Shown: piece after piece, positions 1-24,144 of the stretch
Numbering within the stretch: the first letter of the stretch is position 1
How the letters are laid out: every line of letters starts with the position of its first letter
Translations under genes and position numbers: made by a program
Virus record (IMG/VR): IMGVR_UViG_3300026383_000001
Coordinates: 1-43,915 of that record
From: a virus
Strand: one strand, 5' to 3'
Length of the DNA stretch: 43,915 bases
The notes under the pieces: model-generated
Seen by the model: the letters and a program-made list of their open reading frames with translations, nothing else
Database searches by the model: none
What the model was told of the DNA's origin: nothing

Positions 1-127
1 GTCCAGCGCCTTGTTGCCAGTTGGTTTAACGGCAGCAGGAGCGGGCTTGTCTTTGTCCTCGGCGCTTGCAGGTACAGCCGGCACGTCGGCGGGCTTATCC
101 GCTGGCTTGTCTGCTGGTGTCTCGGTG
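1..127. repeat. Terminal overlap copy 1, identical to 43789..43915 (127 bp)
   Basis: Read by eye: bases 1-127 (gtccagcgccttgttgcc...gctggtgtctcggtg) recur exactly at the 3' end of the window. The repeat lies inside a coding region, so it is a circularisation overlap rather than a biological terminal repeat. Confidence 0.9.
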
Positions 128-276
128 TTACGAGCCTGCACTGCTTTCAGAATGTCATCCAGGGTAGGTTCCTTCGTCTGGACGGGAACATCGGGCACGC
201 CGGATACTTTCGTTTCCTGGAATGCGCCGGTACCTGGTTCTACTGGAGGCAGTTGGCCTGGTGCTAAATCACTCAT
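1..276 (-). CDS. Scaffolding protein, N-terminal segment (continues at 43788 downward through the circular junction)
   Basis: ATG at 276 overlaps the portal stop (ATGA). It translates MSDLAPGQLPPVEPGTGAFQETKVSG...PADKPADKPAD with no stop down to base 1. It is in frame (64 codons) with the ORF 43228..43872 through the 127-bp overlap, giving 278 aa in total. It sits between the portal and capsid genes, as in T7-like phages. Confidence 0.8.
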   Translation of the reverse strand, partial: MSDLAPGQLPPVEPGTGAFQETKVSGVPDVPVQTKEPTLDDILKAVQARNTETPADKPADKPADVPAVPASAEDKDKPAPAAVKPTGNKALD

Positions 277-1796
277 TGCATTTGTCCTTGAATTGCGTCG
301 GATACGTCCGCCAGGGAAGCATCGACTGGGTTAGGTTGTTGTTCTTGCGCTTGCTGCTTCTGCTGCAACTCTTCTTCGGTGTAGTAGAAGTCGTCCGGGT
401 TCAGCCCAACGCCCAGCAGCACCTTGTCCACAATCCTCTCCGGGTCGAACCGACCGCTCGATTGCGTGAGCGCAGGCATAACCACAGCCAGGACTTGAGC
501 AGCCTGTACCAGCTTATCGACATCAGCAGCGCGCCCCAGTGCCGCAGCACCAGTGAGTACGCTCAGCGTCAGACCGCCGGCCAGTAACTCCTCAATGAAT
601 TCAGGTGTATCTTCCCAGCACAGAATGTGTGCCAGTGGGATGTGCAGAGAATCTGCCAAGCTGGAGTACACGCCACCCAATGCGGATTCCGCCTCAGCTG
701 CGTTCTGCCGAATCTCTTCTGCAGTAACACGCTCGGCATCGCGCTGGTTAGCGACGTACAGGAACGAAGGGGAGATGCGATTGGTGATTGTCTCAAGTTC
801 GGCAGCCAGGGCCAGAATCTTGTTGTAGTCGCCAGCCTCATACGCTTGCACCGCGTTCGGGTCACCACTCACCCAGGCACCGGATTCCTCCTGCGCCATG
901 CTATCCACGTCAGCACCACTACCAGGTTTCGCCATGTGCAGGACGCGGCACGCCTCAATCTCATACAGCGCCAAGGCCTCAGAGAGGCTGGACAGCTTAG
1001 CGAAGTCGCCGGCGAAGTCTTCAATCAGACCGCGGCCGTAGGTTTCGCCTGTGATGAGGTTCCAGGTAACTGGGATGTACGGGCAGATAGCCTCGGGGTA
1101 TTCAGCAGTGCCACCCAGCATGATACCCTCAACCTGCTGCGTCACAACGAACACGTCGGTTACGGCTCGGGTCTGGCGGTGTATGCGGGTGTACAAGCAG
1201 ACGTTATCCGACAGGTCGCGCCCTTTGAAGTGCACGCCCAACTCTGCCGGCAGGCTACCGATGCTGATACGTTCCTTGAGAATCATATCGAGCACTTTAC
1301 CGGAGCCATCACGTAGCAGAGTGTACTGTCGGGTGCTGTAAGCGTGCAGGTTCCCTGTGTCGGAATCCCTGTACAGCAGCACGTTACCAGTTACAATCAG
1401 GAGTTTCATCGCTTGGACAAGCTGGTGATACGAGGACTTCAAGAAGATACGCTTATAGGCTCGGTTCTCCATTGCGGCCAGTGCGGAACCGACCTCTTTG
1501 GCTGTGACCGACAGGGCTGATGCCATGCCGTCAGTACCGATTGCGCTGTCAATGCGGAAGAAGGATTGCGTAGACGGGAACAGGATTCCCGCCAGCTTTG
1601 AAGCAAGATGATTTGAAAGTACAGCCCCAACGCTTTGGTAGTCTCGGGCTACGGTCTGACGCCTGCCATCAGTTCGCCAATCCTGGTCGGCGAAGAGAGC
1701 CGGTAAGCTCCACTTCGCGAACTCTTCGGTCTTGATGATATGCGTTTCGTCCTTGTACTTATCATAGAGACTTTCGTACGACCGGGCCCCGTTCAT
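273..1796 (-). CDS. Portal (head-tail connector) protein
   Basis: 507-aa ORF directly upstream of the scaffold and capsid genes, with the size and position of a T7 gp8-type connector. The start ATG shares a base with the upstream stop (TAATG). Confidence 0.85.
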   Translation of the reverse strand: MNGARSYESLYDKYKDETHIIKTEEFAKWSLPALFADQDWRTDGRRQTVARDYQSVGAVLSNHLASKLAGILFPSTQSFFRIDSAIGTDGMASALSVTAKEVGSALAAMENRAYKRIFLKSSYHQLVQAMKLLIVTGNVLLYRDSDTGNLHAYSTRQYTLLRDGSGKVLDMILKERISIGSLPAELGVHFKGRDLSDNVCLYTRIHRQTRAVTDVFVVTQQVEGIMLGGTAEYPEAICPYIPVTWNLITGETYGRGLIEDFAGDFAKLSSLSEALALYEIEACRVLHMAKPGSGADVDSMAQEESGAWVSGDPNAVQAYEAGDYNKILALAAELETITNRISPSFLYVANQRDAERVTAEEIRQNAAEAESALGGVYSSLADSLHIPLAHILCWEDTPEFIEELLAGGLTLSVLTGAAALGRAADVDKLVQAAQVLAVVMPALTQSSGRFDPERIVDKVLLGVGLNPDDFYYTEEELQQKQQAQEQQPNPVDASLADVSDAIQGQMQ

Positions 1797-2697: not shown

Positions 2698-2793
2698 AGT
2701 TACCTCTGAGTCTGCGCTGACTCGTTCGCCCTTCATCTCAATAGATACATCACACTTGGAAGAGGGAAGCCGCATCAAGTACAGTCACTTCCC

Positions 2794-2820
2794 ATCTCCC
2801 CTTAGAGTGATACACTAAAT
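2794..2820 (-). promoter_or_regulatory. Phage RNAP promoter candidate P1 (late genes)
   Basis: The minus strand reads ATTTAGTGTATCACTCTAAGGGGAGAT. It is laid out like T7 promoters (…CACTATAGGGAGA), lies in the gap right after the RNAP gene, and shares a 13-15 nt core with two other copies. Confidence 0.7.
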
Positions 2821-2823
2821 ATT

Positions 2824-5277
2824 TTAGCACATAAAGAACTCAGAATCCAGTACCTTGCGAATGTCCAAAGTACCCTTGACCGGACGCTGAATCTCTTCAC
2901 CGGACATTGCTTCTACCGACTTCGACAAGTCCTCGATTGGGTCATGCTCCTGGTACATCCGAACGAACGTACTACGCAGCACAACGTGCATTGCATCGAC
3001 GTCACAGGCATGAGTAGCGAATGAGTCGTGAACAGGAATCAAGTCGGTGTCTTCGTCCACGAACTCATCTACCGTAAACACCAGGTGAGAGGAGTCCAAG
3101 CCGTGGGTGAAGTTCGGCGAGATACCGTTAATGCACTTGGCCCGGTTCAGCAGGCTGTCGTTGAAGCGGGTCATAACCAGCTGAGTGTTCGTACCGTGCA
3201 GGTGCACACGTACCGATTCCTCCTGGGCGTAGTGCTGCACCATCGGGAACCCGGCTGGAGAAATATGACGAATCGCTTCATTTGCCGGCATCTTCCCAGC
3301 AAGTTCACGCAAGTAACGCATCACTTCCGCTACTGCAGGAACCGCCTGCTCGATACCACTACGCAGGTTCCGGGACAGGTATGCGGCCAACTTGAACGGG
3401 CTGAACAGTTCCTCGGTCGGCAGCTCGCGCTCCACCATATCCAGGTACACGTACTCGGTGCAGCTCTGCAGCGTGCCACCGTATACGTACGTCATCACAG
3501 GGCGCTTAGCCATGCTACGCGGCACGCCGTTGTGTACCCAGTACTGGGCCTGGACTGCGTTATCCTTGTCCTTCTGGATGCGGCTCACAGCGATTGCTGC
3601 TACGCCGGCGTAAATGTCCTCTTTCTCGTCGCCATTGTTCGGCAGCAAGTTCGTGAACATACCACCAACCGTATCGCGCAGCGCGGCACTCAGGTGCTGC
3701 ATACCGGAACAGGTTGCATCCATCGCCACCGGTACATCCGACATGTGGTCTTCCGGGTTCCCGCTGTCCAGGGCTTCCAGCAAGTCCTTAGCGGCCACGT
3801 AGAAACACCACGGGGAGTCTGCACCCTTGAAGAAGTCCGAGTCGATGTGGTTCGCTACAGCATCTCGCAGCTGCTCGATGTGCTCGTCAGTCCAAGCGGC
3901 ACGCAGTACGTTCAGCTTCTTGTCGAAACCGTACGTCGTTGCTACGTGAACCTTCAACCAGAATAGGCCACGCTTACCCAGGCGCTTCTTACGAGCGAAA
4001 CGCAGAGCTGCTTTCACGCAGTCAGAACTCTGTGGGTTGATACGTGAACGGAAGTACAGGCGGCCGCGCCAGTCGAAGTACGTCGGGAAATACAGAGTGT
4101 CGTCGCTGTACTCACGCATGTACTTGATTGTCTGGCTAAAAGCAATGACGTGTGCTTTACGCTCACGCTCATCATTGTACGCCTGTCGGGCCAACGCCTT
4201 CCACATGTTGTGCTGCTCGTTCAGCTCCTCATCTTCCCTGTCCCAGTCTTTCGGCAGCGGATACTCCGGCGCTTTGATAGGAGTCATGGACGGGATGCCC
4301 ACTACAGCCTTTGTACGAGGCACAGCGAAGAGGTCACGCAGTAAGCTGACCAGCCCTACGTCTACCTTGTATGGCACCTGTGCGGCCTTGTTAGCGGCTC
4401 TCAGGGCCAGGTCAGAGATGTTCTCCCGGATGTACCGGCGGTGGTCGGCACGGCGGGTACGCAGACGGATGGTGCCGGATAGGTTTGCCATCTCTGGATG
4501 AACGTACGATGCGCCATTGAACAACGTCTCACGGGTGTGCTCACGCGGCCTAATCAGCATTGGCGGGAACTTCGTGAACGCTTTCAGTGAACCGGACAGC
4601 GAGTTGATTTGGTCAGCAATCAGGTCAGATGGGGTGACCACAACCCAGTGCTGGCCGCCGCCTTTCGGCACGTGCTCAAGCACCACCACGCCGGCGTTAA
4701 CCATCTGCTCCAGGATGAGCTTACCAACCGCATCGCGCTCGGCCGGTGACCACAGCACGTCTGTGCTTTCCAGGCCGACGTTGTTCGCTGACGCGGAGAA
4801 CGTACGCTTACGGTGGTTCGCGGAGCGGGTGTTCGCATCCCGCAGTGACTCTGCCACACGGCGCATGTACCCAGGGGCGGCCAGCGACAGCTTAGAGAAC
4901 ATGTGCTCCAGCTCAGCGTCTGCACCAGCCTTGCTGATGAACGCCTGGGCCAGCTCCGGCAGCGCCTGGGAGTTCGCTGTGCGAATCTTCCCGAACATAC
5001 CCAGCGCAGTACGGATGCCGATTACTGCAACCTTCTCCACGCCAATCTCCCGCAGGAGTTGGTTGTACTTCCCACCAATCCCGCGGGTTTTCTGTGCGAG
5101 GCGTTGCTCAACTGTACCCTTGACCAGCGTAAACAATTTCGCTGCAAGTACACGCCCCACGCCGGTATCGGCCATGCGGCCTGCTGCTTGCTCTTTCTCC
5201 CAGTGTGCCAGGGCATCTGCGATACCCTGCGTTGTGTACTCTTGCTCAATCTCGAACTGACGCTGCTCTAAAGTCAT
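2824..5277 (-). CDS. Single-subunit DNA-directed RNA polymerase (T7-like)
   Basis: 817 aa. Motifs DATCSGMQH (T7 DGSCSGIQH), RSMAKRPVMTYVYGGT (T7 RSVTKRSVMTLAYGS) and PVHDSFATH (T7 IHDSFGT). Located at the end of the DNA-metabolism block, as in phiKMV-like phages. Confidence 0.97.
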   Translation of the reverse strand: MTLEQRQFEIEQEYTTQGIADALAHWEKEQAAGRMADTGVGRVLAAKLFTLVKGTVEQRLAQKTRGIGGKYNQLLREIGVEKVAVIGIRTALGMFGKIRTANSQALPELAQAFISKAGADAELEHMFSKLSLAAPGYMRRVAESLRDANTRSANHRKRTFSASANNVGLESTDVLWSPAERDAVGKLILEQMVNAGVVVLEHVPKGGGQHWVVVTPSDLIADQINSLSGSLKAFTKFPPMLIRPREHTRETLFNGASYVHPEMANLSGTIRLRTRRADHRRYIRENISDLALRAANKAAQVPYKVDVGLVSLLRDLFAVPRTKAVVGIPSMTPIKAPEYPLPKDWDREDEELNEQHNMWKALARQAYNDERERKAHVIAFSQTIKYMREYSDDTLYFPTYFDWRGRLYFRSRINPQSSDCVKAALRFARKKRLGKRGLFWLKVHVATTYGFDKKLNVLRAAWTDEHIEQLRDAVANHIDSDFFKGADSPWCFYVAAKDLLEALDSGNPEDHMSDVPVAMDATCSGMQHLSAALRDTVGGMFTNLLPNNGDEKEDIYAGVAAIAVSRIQKDKDNAVQAQYWVHNGVPRSMAKRPVMTYVYGGTLQSCTEYVYLDMVERELPTEELFSPFKLAAYLSRNLRSGIEQAVPAVAEVMRYLRELAGKMPANEAIRHISPAGFPMVQHYAQEESVRVHLHGTNTQLVMTRFNDSLLNRAKCINGISPNFTHGLDSSHLVFTVDEFVDEDTDLIPVHDSFATHACDVDAMHVVLRSTFVRMYQEHDPIEDLSKSVEAMSGEEIQRPVKGTLDIRKVLDSEFFMC

Positions 5278-13557: not shown

Positions 13558-13584
13558 GAGATACTGCATCTCCCCTTTGAGTGA
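13558..13584 (-). promoter_or_regulatory. Phage RNAP promoter candidate P2 (upstream of the DNAP gene)
   Basis: The minus strand reads AATTAGTGTATCACTCAAAGGGGAGAT in the ligase-DNAP gap. The predicted transcript 5' end GGGGAGAUgcaguAUCUCCC can fold into a 7-bp hairpin. Confidence 0.7.
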
Positions 13585-13592
13585 TACACTAA

Positions 13593-14537
13593 TTAAGCCT
13601 TGATGCCTGGAGCGTACTCTAAGTCCCTGAATCGTACGAAGTTTCCGTGTCTCAGGGAACCATCCTCGGTGTACTCCATGAACTCAATTTCAACGTATCT
13701 GTTTTGGTAGGGGTTCTTGCCGCCGGTACAGGAGAGCACTGTCGCTGTAAACTCCGCCATCTGCGCCTGTGTAATGCCGGTCACATTAGTGCGTACTCCG
13801 TTCTCTAAGAGAACCTCGAATCCGATAACTTTACCTGCATTGGCTAGTCCTTCGGTACCCCACACCAGACCTACAATGCGCCCGTCGCAGGTGTCCTCCG
13901 GCTTGAGCTTCCACCAGCCGGCCACCTTACCGTTCTTCGTACCGTCGTCGGGTGTCTTGATTACCGCGCCCTCCTTCTTCAAGCTGCGGGCGAACTCAAA
14001 GAACTCATGGCAGTCAGCGATGCTGCGAAGCTGGCGCGCCTCTACGTACCGAACGAAGATGCTCGGGTACGGAACCTCCTGCATCTTCCGCACCAGAAGC
14101 TGCTTGCGGAATGCGTACTCCAATGCGAAAGGCTTTTCGCCGGTCAGTGCCTCAATCGGTGCAGTGTCCCACACGTGGAACATCGTGATGTGGCCACCCT
14201 CTACAGGGAGTGCCTCAAAACGCCGCAGGATGCCGCTGGCTTCGCTGAAGGGAATACCCGGTATGGTGACTTCACCATCTACGTAGAAGCCCGCAGGGAG
14301 CGTCTCAAGCAGCCCACGGAGGTACCGCTTGCGGTTCTCCAGGGAGCGAATCTCAATACCCTCGCGGGTGATAACACGCACCTCGCCCTCGTGCATGTAC
14401 GCATGGAAGCGGAAGCCGTCTTCCTTAATCTCACCAAGTACGTACCCGCACCGGGTGATAGCCTTGGTAATCTGTGACTCGTTCCAGTTGCCTGGTTTCT
14501 GGCAGCGGGCCGCCAGTACACGGGGTTGCTTAGCCAT
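13593..14537 (-). CDS. ATP-dependent DNA ligase
   Basis: 314 aa with the adenylation motif EIKEDGFR (KxDG). Size and position are as in T7/phiKMV ligases. Confidence 0.9.
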   Translation of the reverse strand: MAKQPRVLAARCQKPGNWNESQITKAITRCGYVLGEIKEDGFRFHAYMHEGEVRVITREGIEIRSLENRKRYLRGLLETLPAGFYVDGEVTIPGIPFSEASGILRRFEALPVEGGHITMFHVWDTAPIEALTGEKPFALEYAFRKQLLVRKMQEVPYPSIFVRYVEARQLRSIADCHEFFEFARSLKKEGAVIKTPDDGTKNGKVAGWWKLKPEDTCDGRIVGLVWGTEGLANAGKVIGFEVLLENGVRTNVTGITQAQMAEFTATVLSCTGGKNPYQNRYVEIEFMEYTEDGSLRHGNFVRFRDLEYAPGIKA

Positions 14538-16183: not shown

Positions 16184-16958
16184 ACAAACTCTCCAGAGTC
16201 ATATCTTTTGGGTCTCCCGATACTGGTCGGGCCTCAATGAACTTACCGCCGAACACTGCCATACGCCGACGAATACCAGCGGCGCCATCGGCACCTGCTC
16301 TGTCACCGTCGTACATGCAGATTATATCACGACCGGCCAGACTAGGTATCAGGCCGGGCACGACCACGGTGCCCAGAGTAGCGAGCACGCTTACTGAACT
16401 TTCTGGCGCATAGTGTTCTATCGCCTTCGCCACTTTGTAGGAACTTAACGCATCCTCCACAAGTACCATCGGCCCGGCATCCCGGTATCTCGTCCACCAT
16501 GCTTTCGGCTGGCCGAACCACTTGCCGTACTCCAACCACTTGGGCGATTGCCTCAAGCTCAACGCTCTGCCTAAGGCTTGATTGCCCTGTCGCAGTAATA
16601 TCCGGTTCGCACTTGCGCTGAACCATACCGCCTCCTCGGGGATAATGCCCGGCGGGCACCCCTTCTGAACAAGCAATTCCCAAATACGTTGTTGCTCGTA
16701 CCGGCTTGCTTGGGTTATGTGAATTACGTCTGCAGGTACAGGCTGCACCCGGTCTGGTTCTACCCGTGCCTCCTGAATCCGTTGGTGCTGCTTGGGCATT
16801 CGCCCACCGTCATGGCAGCGAAAACACCAACAGCTCCAACCATCATCATTATTATATACATCTAATGATGCGGTACGTCCGCAACCGTGACGTATACGTT
16901 TCTTCTGCCCAACATGCAGTCGCTTCGCCTCTGATAACCACTCATCATAAGGTATCAT
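16155..16958 (-). CDS. DNA primase (zinc-finger + TOPRIM)
   Basis: 267 aa with the Cys/His cluster CWCFRCHDGG and TOPRIM-like VLVEDALS and MYDGDRAG. Immediately upstream of the helicase gene. Confidence 0.85.
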   Translation of the reverse strand: MIPYDEWLSEAKRLHVGQKKRIRHGCGRTASLDVYNNDDGWSCWCFRCHDGGRMPKQHQRIQEARVEPDRVQPVPADVIHITQASRYEQQRIWELLVQKGCPPGIIPEEAVWFSASANRILLRQGNQALGRALSLRQSPKWLEYGKWFGQPKAWWTRYRDAGPMVLVEDALSSYKVAKAIEHYAPESSVSVLATLGTVVVPGLIPSLAGRDIICMYDGDRAGADGAAGIRRRMAVFGGKFIEARPVSGDPKDMTLESLYETVKHTVV

Positions 16959-20322: not shown

Positions 20323-20880
20323 CTATTTAATCCACATAAGGCACAGGTCGTGGCCTTGGTTGAATACAAATGAATGACTCGGGGATGTTAAGCGCTTCCA
20401 ATCCTCAGGGGACATAAGCCGCTCATCTCCGAACGATGGGGTTTTGTACTTGTTCGTTGGAACGTACGCCACTACAGCATGGGTGGCTTCGTGCTGCTGG
20501 CGCTGGACAATCTGACGAATGTCCGCATCACAGAAGTGCTCGAGCACTCCGTGAGAATGAATCACATCGACCTTAGAGTGACACTCTAAGATGTTCCCCA
20601 CATCACAGAACAGCCCTGTGTTGTGGCGGGCAAGCGTCGCCTGCTCATAATCGCGGTCGAACATGTACAGGTCGGCACGGTAGTTTAAATCAGCGTGCAG
20701 GATAGCGGTAATAGTGCCGATACCTGCACCCTCTTCACGCAGTACTGGTCGATGCCCTCTACGGTGCACAGCAAGGCCGGAGTACGCAATCCCTTGGATA
20801 AACGGGGCGTACTTCTGGCGCGCGTACTCCTTGTACCGGGCATTACAGCGACCAGCGTAGAACTCAGACCACTGGGACAT
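20323..20880 (-). CDS. Class I SAM-dependent methyltransferase
   Basis: Motif I VLREEGAGIGT (ExGxGxG) and DVIHSHGVLEHF. No DPPY/NPPY or PCQ DNA-methylase motif was seen. The ATG at 20880 follows GGGAG and overlaps an upstream TAA (TAATG). Confidence 0.7.
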   Translation of the reverse strand: MSQWSEFYAGRCNARYKEYARQKYAPFIQGIAYSGLAVHRRGHRPVLREEGAGIGTITAILHADLNYRADLYMFDRDYEQATLARHNTGLFCDVGNILECHSKVDVIHSHGVLEHFCDADIRQIVQRQQHEATHAVVAYVPTNKYKTPSFGDERLMSPEDWKRLTSPSHSFVFNQGHDLCLMWIK

Positions 20881-22273: not shown

Positions 22274-22648
22274 TTATGGATGGTAGTACTCCCCGTGTAA
22301 CCGCACAGCTAGTGCGCAGCGTTCGGTGTAGGCATCTTCGGCGTTGTCGTGCCGTCCGGTGTAATACCATACACCGTCCAACTTAACCGCGCCGTAGTAC
22401 CTACCGGCCTTGCACCTCACACCTTTATAACCAGTGCTGTTGTTGCGTTGCACTGGTCTATTGCGGAGGTTCTCAGCCTGCGAGCATTCCCTTAGATTGA
22501 CTAGGCGGTTATCATCACGCTGCCTGTTAAGATGGTCAATAACACCCGGCCAATGGCCATGCGTTAAGAACCACGCTACGCGGTGACAGTAGAATCGCTT
22601 ACCTTGTAGCACAAATGTTAGATAACCCTCCTTGTCAACCGTACCCAT
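22274..22648 (-). CDS. HNH-AP2 homing endonuclease (first ORF of the early operon)
   Basis: Motifs HRVAWFL...IDHLNRQRDDNRLVNLRECSQAEN followed by an AP2-like GYKGVRCKAGRYYGAVKLDGVWYYTGRHDNAEDAY. Confidence 0.8.
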   Translation of the reverse strand: MGTVDKEGYLTFVLQGKRFYCHRVAWFLTHGHWPGVIDHLNRQRDDNRLVNLRECSQAENLRNRPVQRNNSTGYKGVRCKAGRYYGAVKLDGVWYYTGRHDNAEDAYTERCALAVRLHGEYYHP

Positions 22649-23354: not shown

Positions 23355-23381
23355 ATTTAGTGTATCACTATAAGGAGGAAC
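23355..23381 (+). promoter_or_regulatory. Third copy of the phage-promoter motif (P3), on the opposite strand to all genes
   Basis: Plus strand ATTTAGTGTATCACTATAAGGAGGAAC. The 15-nt core is identical to P1. It points into the T-depleted tract. Confidence 0.55.
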
Positions 23382-23860
23382 GACGTGATGAAAGAACGTT
23401 GAACCGACTGGGCGAGTGGTGTAATCCCGAGCAGAGAGCGAAGCGAGGCCCGAAGGGTGAGAGCCGGTGCTGAGCGTAACAGAGTGACCGGAGGTCGAGT
23501 GTCCCAGGAGGTGGTGAGAGTGAAGAAGGCAGGTACCCCTCCCGCAGCGAAGAAGGCAAGCGCGCACGAGAGCACACGCCAGCCAAGAGAGCGAGGAGAG
23601 CGGAGATGAGGCCCACGCAGCACGAGCGAGCGCAGCGAGTGAGGCCAAAGAGGAGAGGAGGAGAGGAACGGGCGCACGCGCGAGCAATCCATAGCACGCG
23701 CACGCACGCGGTAGAGAGGAGGGTGCACCCCACCCGCTGAGAAAGCCCCAGCAGGACACCCCACGGGGGACACGCGCGCTGCGTTGAGTGGAGGGACACC
23801 CTCGCATGAGCATAATAAAATTCCAGTGTGCGTAGAACGAGCACCCCAGAGCACCCACCC
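23382..23860. other. Strand-asymmetric non-coding tract (purine-rich and T-poor on the plus strand); probable concatemer-junction / terminal-repeat region
   Basis: Hand count: about 10 T in 240 nt for 23521-23760 and about 33 T in 420 nt for 23401-23820. Polypurine runs are present, for example AAAGAGGAGAGGAGGAGAGGAA. No SD-led ORF on either strand. Confidence 0.6.
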
Positions 23861-24144
23861 TACACCTGCAGCACAGCTCCTGAGTACTCCGGGTGCTGCA
23901 GCACTGCCTGGTAAGCCTGCTCCATGAACGCGGTACCATCCCGGTAATAGAACGGAACCTCATTCACTCGGTAGAACGTACCGCCCAGGGTGGTTACCAC
24001 TGTGGCTACTGCTGCACCGGTACCGGCTGTTACGCTAATACCAGTGACCTCGTGCAGGAACTGTACCTGCTCTTCCTGCTCACGCAGGAGGATACTGCCC
24101 AGTGTTACCTGGGCTTGTACCTTAGCTACTTCTGTCAGCTTCAT
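23860..24144 (-). CDS. Hypothetical protein (last late gene)
   Basis: 94-aa ORF with SD AGGAG 5 nt upstream, directly after the tailspike stop. Confidence 0.7.
   Translation of the reverse strand: MKLTEVAKVQAQVTLGSILLREQEEQVQFLHEVTGISVTAGTGAAVATVVTTLGGTFYRVNEVPFYYRDGTAFMEQAYQAVLQHPEYSGAVLQV
23866..23901 (-). terminator. 9-bp perfect hairpin at the 3' end of the last late gene (possible transcript 3'-end structure)
   Basis: CTGCAGCAC, an 18-nt loop, then GTGCTGCAG. It lies within the last 14 codons of 23860..24144. There is no adjacent U-tract, so function as a terminator is uncertain. Confidence 0.3.

Follow-up and report, generated by a model that had tools for sequence, protein, structure and literature searches.

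IMG/VR virus record IMGVR_UViG_3300026383_000001 (called the window here, meaning the whole stretch of 43,915 nucleotides that was analyzed) holds the complete genome of a phiKMV-like podovirus, circularly permuted and ~43.9 kb long. The minus strand carries all long open reading frames (ORFs) and all annotated functions, including a single-subunit RNA polymerase. This polymerase is at most 58% identical to that of any GenBank phage, its nearest counterparts being those of the Corkvirinae (Pseudomonas phage YMC11/06/C171_PPU_BP, Pectobacterium phages PP16 and MA2, and Dickeya phage BF25/12), and a megablast search of the junction region against GenBank phages returned 0 matches; judged by its sequence, the phage has no close relative among cultured phages. 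The subject of this study is a short plus-strand element in that junction region, which the original prediction, made from the letters alone, had read as a phage-promoter copy inverted relative to every gene and pointing into the genome-junction tract.

Three copies of a putative phage promoter in the window

The extended motif TTAGTGTATCACTNNAAGGRG has exactly three zero-mismatch matches in the window, at 2798-2818(-), 13572-13592(-), and 23357-23377(+). By chance, 0.01 matches were expected from shuffled sequences, and 0 of 100 shuffles reached three. This exact search bore out the earlier statement that the promoter core occurs three times and that the third copy, on the plus strand, is antisense to all long ORFs. 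Both of the gene-strand copies that had been described are present as well, but the second lies at 13568-13594 and not at 13558-13584, and its 15-mer is one base off (AATTAGTG... in place of ATTTAGTG...). The inverted copy shares 21/21 specified positions with both co-directional copies and matches them exactly across 13-15 nt, while its orientation opposes every protein-coding gene. Copy 1 begins 4 nt past the stop codon of the RNA polymerase gene; the DNA polymerase gene starts 33 nt downstream of copy 2. The coordinates of these and the other features are collected in Table 1.

When up to five mismatches were allowed, the search returned one extra match only, a weak palindromic site at ~20573-20589. 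It coincides with a perfect palindrome, CTTAGAGTG(A/T)CACTCTAAG, at 20572-20590 inside an early/middle ORF, which resembles the 3' half of the promoter (either strand differs from the 21-nt motif at 4-5 positions) and could be a weak bidirectional site or a product of chance.

The inverted copy is located between the left terminal repeat (predicted boundary, ~23541) and the host-type early promoters. It is 203 and 356 bp from the two sigma70-like sequences, the first figure agreeing with the ~200 bp that had been given for these divergent promoters.

Table 1. Positions of the promoters and of the features around the genome junction in the window
Feature	Position	Strand	Remarks
Single-subunit RNA polymerase	2824..5277	-	817 amino acids (aa); expected to recognize all three promoters
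Co-directional promoter after RNA polymerase gene (predicted)	2794..2820	-	Post-RNA-polymerase position also filled in L010, L008, L009, PP16, PhiM1, and KP34
Co-directional promoter upstream of DNA polymerase gene (predicted)	13568..13594	-	Equivalents: L010 1327, PP16 12146
Two sigma70-like early promoters	23152-23124 and 22999-22971	-	Consensus matches only; diverge from inverted promoter
Inverted promoter for phage single-subunit RNA polymerase (predicted)	23355..23381, core 23357-23377	+	Sequence ATTTAGTGTATCACTATAAGGAGGAAC
Predicted leftward transcribed tract, promoter to physical end	23382..23794	+	T-depleted, GC 63-69%, purine-rich
Mini-ORF GTG ATG AAA GAA CGT TGA behind AAGGAGG	23385..23402	+	Probably incidental
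Direct terminal repeat, collapsed to one copy in assembly	23541..23794		Probable, ~230-255 bp, inferred
Conserved junction GCGAGGGTGTC/CCTCCACTCAACGC	23781..23809	-	Predicted physical left terminus 23794/23795
Terminator-like hairpin and UUUUAUUAU	23812..23868	-	For rightward late transcription (predicted), just before repeat; one-way

The inverted copy is conserved and follows the specificity of the polymerase

We searched IMG/VR for relatives of the window phage using its large terminase (TerL) and RNA polymerase as queries. Two were found: contig 3300018469_000002 (loci L002 and L010; TerL 91%, RNA polymerase 87%) and a phage from sample 3300034160 (loci L004 and L009; TerL 86%, RNA polymerase 78-79%). 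The RNA polymerase query also matched L008, a fragment with the polymerase only. A tailspike query returned nothing because the tailspike is too variable. The sole match to motif TTAGTGTATCACTNNAAGG in IMG/VR was due to chance, within an ORF of an unrelated AT-rich contig (L001), and a search of viral and metagenome collections with the conserved block CACTATAAGGAGKAACGAC returned the same two relatives only, plus two unrelated chance matches.

The junction-spanning loci of both relatives (L002 and L004) align with the window. An inverted copy occupies the equivalent site in these two loci, in PP16, YMC11/06/C171 (YMC11), PhiM1 (where it is weaker), and LIMElight, and in phage LUZ19, from which an antisense promoter, P001, is known (Table 2). 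By sequence comparison, position and orientation are conserved in at least five genera in addition to the window clade. The comparison with related genomes that had been proposed alongside the original prediction thus placed the element at the same site in the same orientation.

Table 2. Promoter copies and composition of the terminus-to-promoter interval in the window phage and related phages
Phage or loci	Annotated terminal repeat	Own co-directional copies	Inverted copy	A fraction, gene strand
Window		ATTTAGTGTATCACT; AATTAGTGTATCACT	ATTTAGTGTATCACT	0.080
L002 / L010		TTAAGGTGTCCACT; ATTAGATGTCCACT	TTAAGATGTCCACT	0.072 (L002)
L004 / L009		AATAGACCACCACT	AATAGACCTCCACT	
PP16	1-366	Four of CCATAGAACGACACT	528-514(-), CCATAGGACGACACTATAAGAGAG, 14/15	0.066
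YMC11/06/C171	Not annotated	GACTCTGCACTTAG (37962+)	AGCTCTGCACTAGGTAGAGGAACGAG, 15558-	0.066
PhiM1	1-293	TTAGTATCTCACTCTAAAGGG (20951+)	TTAGTTCCGCACTATACAGAGAGAGGAACGA, 507-, more diverged	0.108
LIMElight	1-277	Four, annotated	549-532(-), unannotated	
LUZ19 (NC_010326)	1-472		751-732(-)	0.067
KP34				0.158
Whole genomes				0.21-0.26

In the window, L002, and L004, the gene strand retains the block GTCGTTCCTCCTTATAGTG, which is CACTATAAGGAGGAACGAC in reverse complement; the flanking 10-12 nt differ. These variable nucleotides agree with the promoter that follows the RNA polymerase gene in the same phage. We examined this agreement with a permutation test on the 12 nt upstream of CACT, in which each inverted copy was paired with its own phage's promoter and compared with 720 permutations. 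The true pairing scored 55/72, and only 1/720 permutations did as well. The inverted copies have in common an initial transcribed sequence of the AG(A/G)GAACGA type, and the co-directional copies have GGGGAGA.

The polymerase segment that aligns with the T7 specificity loop reads HGTN-TQLV in the window, GGTG-IKFN in L010 and L008, and DGIG-VKLV in L009. L010 and L008 have both the loop and the promoter core in common, and across the window, L010/L008, and L009 the specificity-loop residues change in step with the promoter cores. Residues ~690-720 are a hot spot of difference among polymerases that are otherwise 79-87% identical. From their sequences, these appear to be natural polymerase-promoter pairs, which may be orthogonal. 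That the inverted element has been retuned repeatedly to a changing polymerase specificity argues that it is used by that polymerase.

Two relatives show further detail at this site. In Pantoea phage LIMElight (L021, NC_019454), the inverted copy AATTATGATTGACGTTATAGAGTGAGG of the annotated phage-specific promoter, at 532-549(-), is itself unannotated and overlaps two features annotated as putative host promoters. In L002, a co-directional promoter-like sequence, TAAGGTGTCCGCTCTAAGGGAAC, with one mismatch in the CACT core lies at 16440-16475(+), with a ribosome-binding site and an ATG after it; this copy occupies the place of the window's sigma70-like promoter, and its sequence suggests that this phage may carry a back-to-back pair of phage promoters.

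A T-poor tract connects the promoter to the predicted genome end

The plus strand of 23382-23794 contains 8% T, compared to 23% genome-wide. Among 400-nt stretches of the genome, none is more extreme; outside the junction, T content falls no lower than 15.8%. The T-depleted tract previously noted beyond the inverted copy is therefore present, with a length of ~410 nt. To compare phages, we determined the A fraction of the gene strand between terminus and promoter, which equals U in the RNA (Table 2). The composition step coincides with the promoter position in the window, PP16, PhiM1, LUZ19, and YMC11; in PP16, PhiM1, and LUZ19, the return to normal composition falls at the promoter and not at the annotated repeat end. 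An AT-rich stretch (GC 39.5%) lies upstream of the inverted promoter, and downstream the GC content is 63-69%.

By analogy with T7 (CACTATA-G) and the LUZ19 motif (...ACAnnGG), we predict a start at the GG at ~23374-23375. The polymerase would start near 23374 and run through the U-poor, terminator-free tract to 23794/5 on unit-length DNA, giving a transcript of ~420 nt with 8% U. On replicating concatemers, the RNA would cross the junction and continue antisense into a 94-aa ORF and the tailspike gene, as in LUZ19. We found no terminator-like site on the plus strand for >5 kb beyond the junction. The tract had no Rfam match (E up to 1), the predicted antisense RNA showed nothing unusual in the structure of its 5' end (z = -0.37), and plus-strand ORFs in and beyond the tract had no Pfam or PHROG matches. 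ORFs inside the tract were rejected as genes, being low-complexity artifacts of a strand without stop-codon letters.

The window junction aligns with the annotated start of the right terminal repeat in PP16 (43903) and PhiM1 (43535) and also agrees with the left ends of these phages, CCTCCACTCACAC and CCCTCCACTCAACC. The conserved sequence is GCGAGGG(TG/CC)TC followed directly by CCTCCACTCA, the annotated repeat start in PP16 and PhiM1 falling between the two. From this conservation, we therefore predict that the physical left end of the window genome is at 23794/23795, between GAGGGTGTC and CCTCCACTCA in minus-strand reading. About 35 nt inside the predicted end is a palindrome, CCCCCGTGGGG, that resembles CCCCCATAGGGGG, found near the left ends of KP34 and T7.

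The extent of the repeat was estimated from two features. The motif CTTGCyTTCTTCGC is near the right repeat boundary in PP16 (repeat of 366 bp) and PhiM1 (293 bp) and is found in the window at 23541-23565, and T-depletion peaks at 23541-23779, with 7 T in 239 nt. The motif position and the composition step together suggest a repeat of ~230-255 bp. The inverted promoter would then be ~160-180 bp outside the repeat boundary; the corresponding distance is ~150 bp in PP16, 200 bp in PhiM1, and 260 bp in LIMElight and LUZ19.

On the other side of the junction, the terminator-like hairpin folds with -23.6 kcal/mol as gene-strand RNA, compared to -8.5 kcal/mol for the opposite strand, which has no U-run. 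YMC11 has an equivalent hairpin with AUUUUAUUAU, and both L002 and L004 keep the TTTTATTAT block. Close by, at 23885, is one of seven copies of TACTCCGG in the window (the others being at 4262, 11242, 16124, 20777, 27324, and 40417; 1.0 expected), which has 8 nt in common with the nick-associated motif CCTACTCCGG of phiKMV/LUZ19. We rejected TACTCCGG as a nick motif of the phiKMV type; it occurs on both strands, is mostly intragenic, and shows no extended consensus.

Other features near the promoters

The RNA expected from the promoter behind the polymerase gene opens with a stem-loop at 2740-2801(-) (-20.8 kcal/mol, z = -2.87). The stem-loop is kept in five related phages (L010 12460-12520, L009 1769-1830, L013 22449-22510, L015 20969-21030, and L014 37978-38040), with both-side changes at 11/14 pairs and a conserved loop motif, GATGCG. 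The LIMElight leader, which was included in the alignment, does not fit. The structure may act as a leader for late mRNA stability or processing. Past the early promoters, the first sizeable ORF, at 22274-22648(-), encodes an HNH endonuclease (PHROG 99, E = 4e-43), and the intervening 350-700 nt contain no gene-strand ORF of at least 60 aa.

Identity and possible functions of the inverted element

We consider it very probable that the inverted element is an active promoter for the phage's own polymerase, homologous to LUZ19 P001, activity being argued from conservation and from LUZ19. At the sequence level, the window element has every feature of the P001 class, and conservation together with co-variation supports the initial reading of the locus. 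Two points speak for caution: the inverted copy of PhiM1 matches its own promoter at 6/12 positions, no better than it matches the window's promoter, and start site, terminus, and repeat length are all assigned by homology. It is highly improbable that the element is a nonfunctional relic or a chance duplicate, given the chance expectation of 0.01, the conservation of position and orientation across genera with co-variation, and the activity of the LUZ19 counterpart (Putzeys et al. 2024, PMC10914365, cited here and below for selected sections). The arrangement does fall outside the T7 scheme, as had been proposed, but it is not new, since P001 had already been mapped (PMC10914365), and the window is a further example of a published phenomenon in a lineage without a cultured representative. 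Within those sections, the coverage of Putzeys et al. is of Phikmvvirus only. What may be new in detail is the finding of the antisense promoter in Kotilavirus, Kantovirus, Phimunavirus, Limelightvirus, and the window clade, together with the co-variation, the tract boundary at the promoter, and the contrast with KP34.

With respect to function, we regard a cis-acting role at the level of the DNA, at the terminal repeat or concatemer junction, as the most likely, a tentative choice that we favor weakly over insulation. Purine-rich RNA forms a stable hybrid with a pyrimidine-rich template. Leftward transcription through the repeat or junction would open the duplex or leave such a purine-RNA/pyrimidine-DNA hybrid, which would help the repeat to be replicated, duplicated, or cut; priming or the recruitment of processing may be involved as well. 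T7 puts its end-proximal promoters and junction pausing to a similar use. In favor of this role, the skew spans exactly the interval from terminus to promoter, extending past the annotated repeat in PP16, PhiM1, and LUZ19; the antisense path has neither terminators (>5 kb) nor U-runs; and late transcription already has a one-way terminator before the repeat. T7 and KP34 have a promoter at the equivalent place in the other orientation, which suggests that the function is tied to the place and not to the antisense product. The pausing of T7 polymerase at the junction provides a precedent (PMC3276506). Three observations count against a DNA-level role. In KP34, an A-poor tract (A 15.8%) ends at a co-directional promoter without leftward transcription, and the composition may therefore serve something besides a leftward transcript. 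The DNA downstream of the inverted promoter is GC-rich, unlike the AT-rich DNA downstream of the T7 origin. Lastly, the only authors with data prefer, in the sections cited, that read-through into the early genes is blocked (PMC10914365). A more specific version, in which promoter and purine-rich tract form one module whose R-loop over the repeat exposes a 3'-ended strand or gives a primer, is speculative, and we think it rather unlikely. If it were true, the R-loop would drive concatemer formation, repeat duplication, or terminase cutting, and the module would be the phiKMV group's answer to end replication and packaging, replacing the co-directional phiOR/junction-pause system of T7.

The transcriptional insulator of Putzeys et al. 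2024 is possible, if somewhat doubtful. Leftward middle and late transcription would stop read-through across the junction, by polymerase collision or through double-stranded RNA that is then cleaved, so that the early genes stay off late in infection. The proposal came from mapped LUZ19 antisense transcripts over the right-end genes (PMC10914365), and the promoter lies exactly at the boundary, with the end of the late region on one side and the early promoters on the other. Convergent T7 promoters do interfere in vitro (PMC12439596), but T7 and T3 polymerases that meet head-on in vitro are able to get past one another (Ma and McAllister 2009, as cited in PMC12439596). Moreover, late transcripts already have a terminator-like hairpin before the repeat. 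KP34, like T7, has a co-directional promoter at this place that transcribes toward the early genes, and insulation is therefore no general need of the phage family. An antisense regulator, in which the concatemer transcript pairs with the mRNA of the 94-aa ORF and of the tailspike/depolymerase and tunes its level, strikes us as improbable. LUZ19 antisense transcripts do overlap gp47-gp49 (PMC10914365), and no plus-strand terminator was seen for >5 kb past the junction; however, the right-end genes vary by lineage, the tailspike being unconserved even in the closest relatives, whereas the promoter and tract are conserved. What is conserved is thus the interval from promoter to terminus and not the overlap with genes, and the poor conservation of the right-end genes makes antisense control an unlikely conserved function. 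The notion that the promoter expresses a small peptide, or another plus-strand gene, has very little to recommend it. The letters of the mini-ORF are as previously reported, a perfect AAGGAGG is 6-9 nt before the GTG/ATG, and the two closest relatives have the ORF too. Its product, however, varies in length and sequence among these three phages (MMKER*, MMKERSTDA*, and MKNEQRTDA*, the L004 and L002 versions having 9 codons), and no such ORF was found in PP16, PhiM1, YMC11, or LUZ19. If transcription starts at the GG, the Shine-Dalgarno sequence would be at the very 5' end of the RNA, and plus-strand ORFs behind the promoter matched nothing in Pfam or PHROG. On these sequence grounds, the mini-ORF is probably not the purpose of the element.

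The inverted copy is one of only three promoters for the phage's own polymerase, and a promoter that has been kept and retuned to each polymerase across several genera must do something important. The co-variation, the tract boundary at the promoter, and the orientation flip relative to KP34 and T7 turn DNA-end processing or priming, on the one hand, and insulation, on the other, into testable alternatives. In practical terms, the element and the conserved junction allow physical ends to be predicted in metagenomic phiKMV-like genomes, in which polymerase-promoter pairs become predictable as well.

Comparison with known systems

The closest known system is LUZ19. Transcription starts in this phage were mapped by ONT-cappable-seq, which revealed four promoters specific to the phage, sharing the motif GgtTATGTCACacACAnnGG (Putzeys et al. 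2024, PMC10914365). One of these, the antisense promoter P001, has a mapped start, and antisense transcripts reach the rightmost genes, gp47-gp49 (PMC10914365). A further 15 Phikmvvirus species have the motif as well, the antisense copy included, and P001 was suggested to prevent elongation into the early genes on the circularized genome (PMC10914365). In our own examination of the LUZ19 genome, the A-poor tract extends to ~730, just short of the inverted motif, and sigma70 promoters follow from 913. LUZ19 and the window are alike in having a phage-polymerase promoter copy that opposes all genes, with the terminal repeat to its left and the sigma70 early promoters 160-200 bp to its right, and an A-depleted gene-strand tract that runs from this promoter to the genome end (A 6.7% compared to 8.0% in the window). 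In both, the copy is one among only 3-5 phage promoters, another of which is directly behind the polymerase gene, and the LUZ19 motif, xTGTxxCACxxxAxGG, bears a distant likeness to that of the window. They differ in that LUZ19 belongs to the Krylovirinae, whereas the nearest polymerases to that of the window are from Corkvirinae, and in the promoter sequence itself. The tract is ~730 nt in LUZ19 and ~420 nt in the window, and transcripts have been mapped in LUZ19, whereas activity in the window is deduced.

The R-loop primer systems offer an analogy only. At the mitochondrial LSP/CSB and in ColE1 RNA II, a promoter leads into a purine- or G-rich RNA stretch, and the persistent hybrid is extended by DNA polymerase. 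The window tract is without G-quadruplex-type runs of note.

In T7, a phage-polymerase promoter, phiOL, separates the terminal repeat from the host early promoters, and a second, phiOR, directs phage transcription across the terminal repeat in concatemers. Both are secondary replication origins and point in gene direction, and the T7 origin promoters are followed by AT-rich DNA. The window resembles this system in that a phage promoter adjoins the terminal repeat (~160-180 bp right of the predicted boundary). It lacks two defining features of the origin promoters, as its promoter is inverted and is followed by GC-rich, purine-rich DNA. The T-poor tract of the window cannot contain the T7 class II pause sequence, ATCTGTT. 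In T7, maturation and packaging begin when the RNA polymerase pauses at the concatemer junction (PMC3276506).

KP34 has three strong promoters that are active in vitro (Lu et al. 2019, PMC6834552). We found all of them on the gene strand, including a left-end copy at 475-490, and detected no inverted copy at up to five mismatches in the first 1400 nt. As in the window, the third KP34 copy lies right of the terminal repeat (~260 bp from a repeat of 216 bp), left of the host promoter, and at the end of an A-poor tract; unlike in the window, it faces the same way as the genes, and A is less depleted in the tract (15.8%). A promoter position next to the repeat is thus common to KP34, where we observed it, and to T7, as it is generally described, while the orientation of that promoter varies by lineage.

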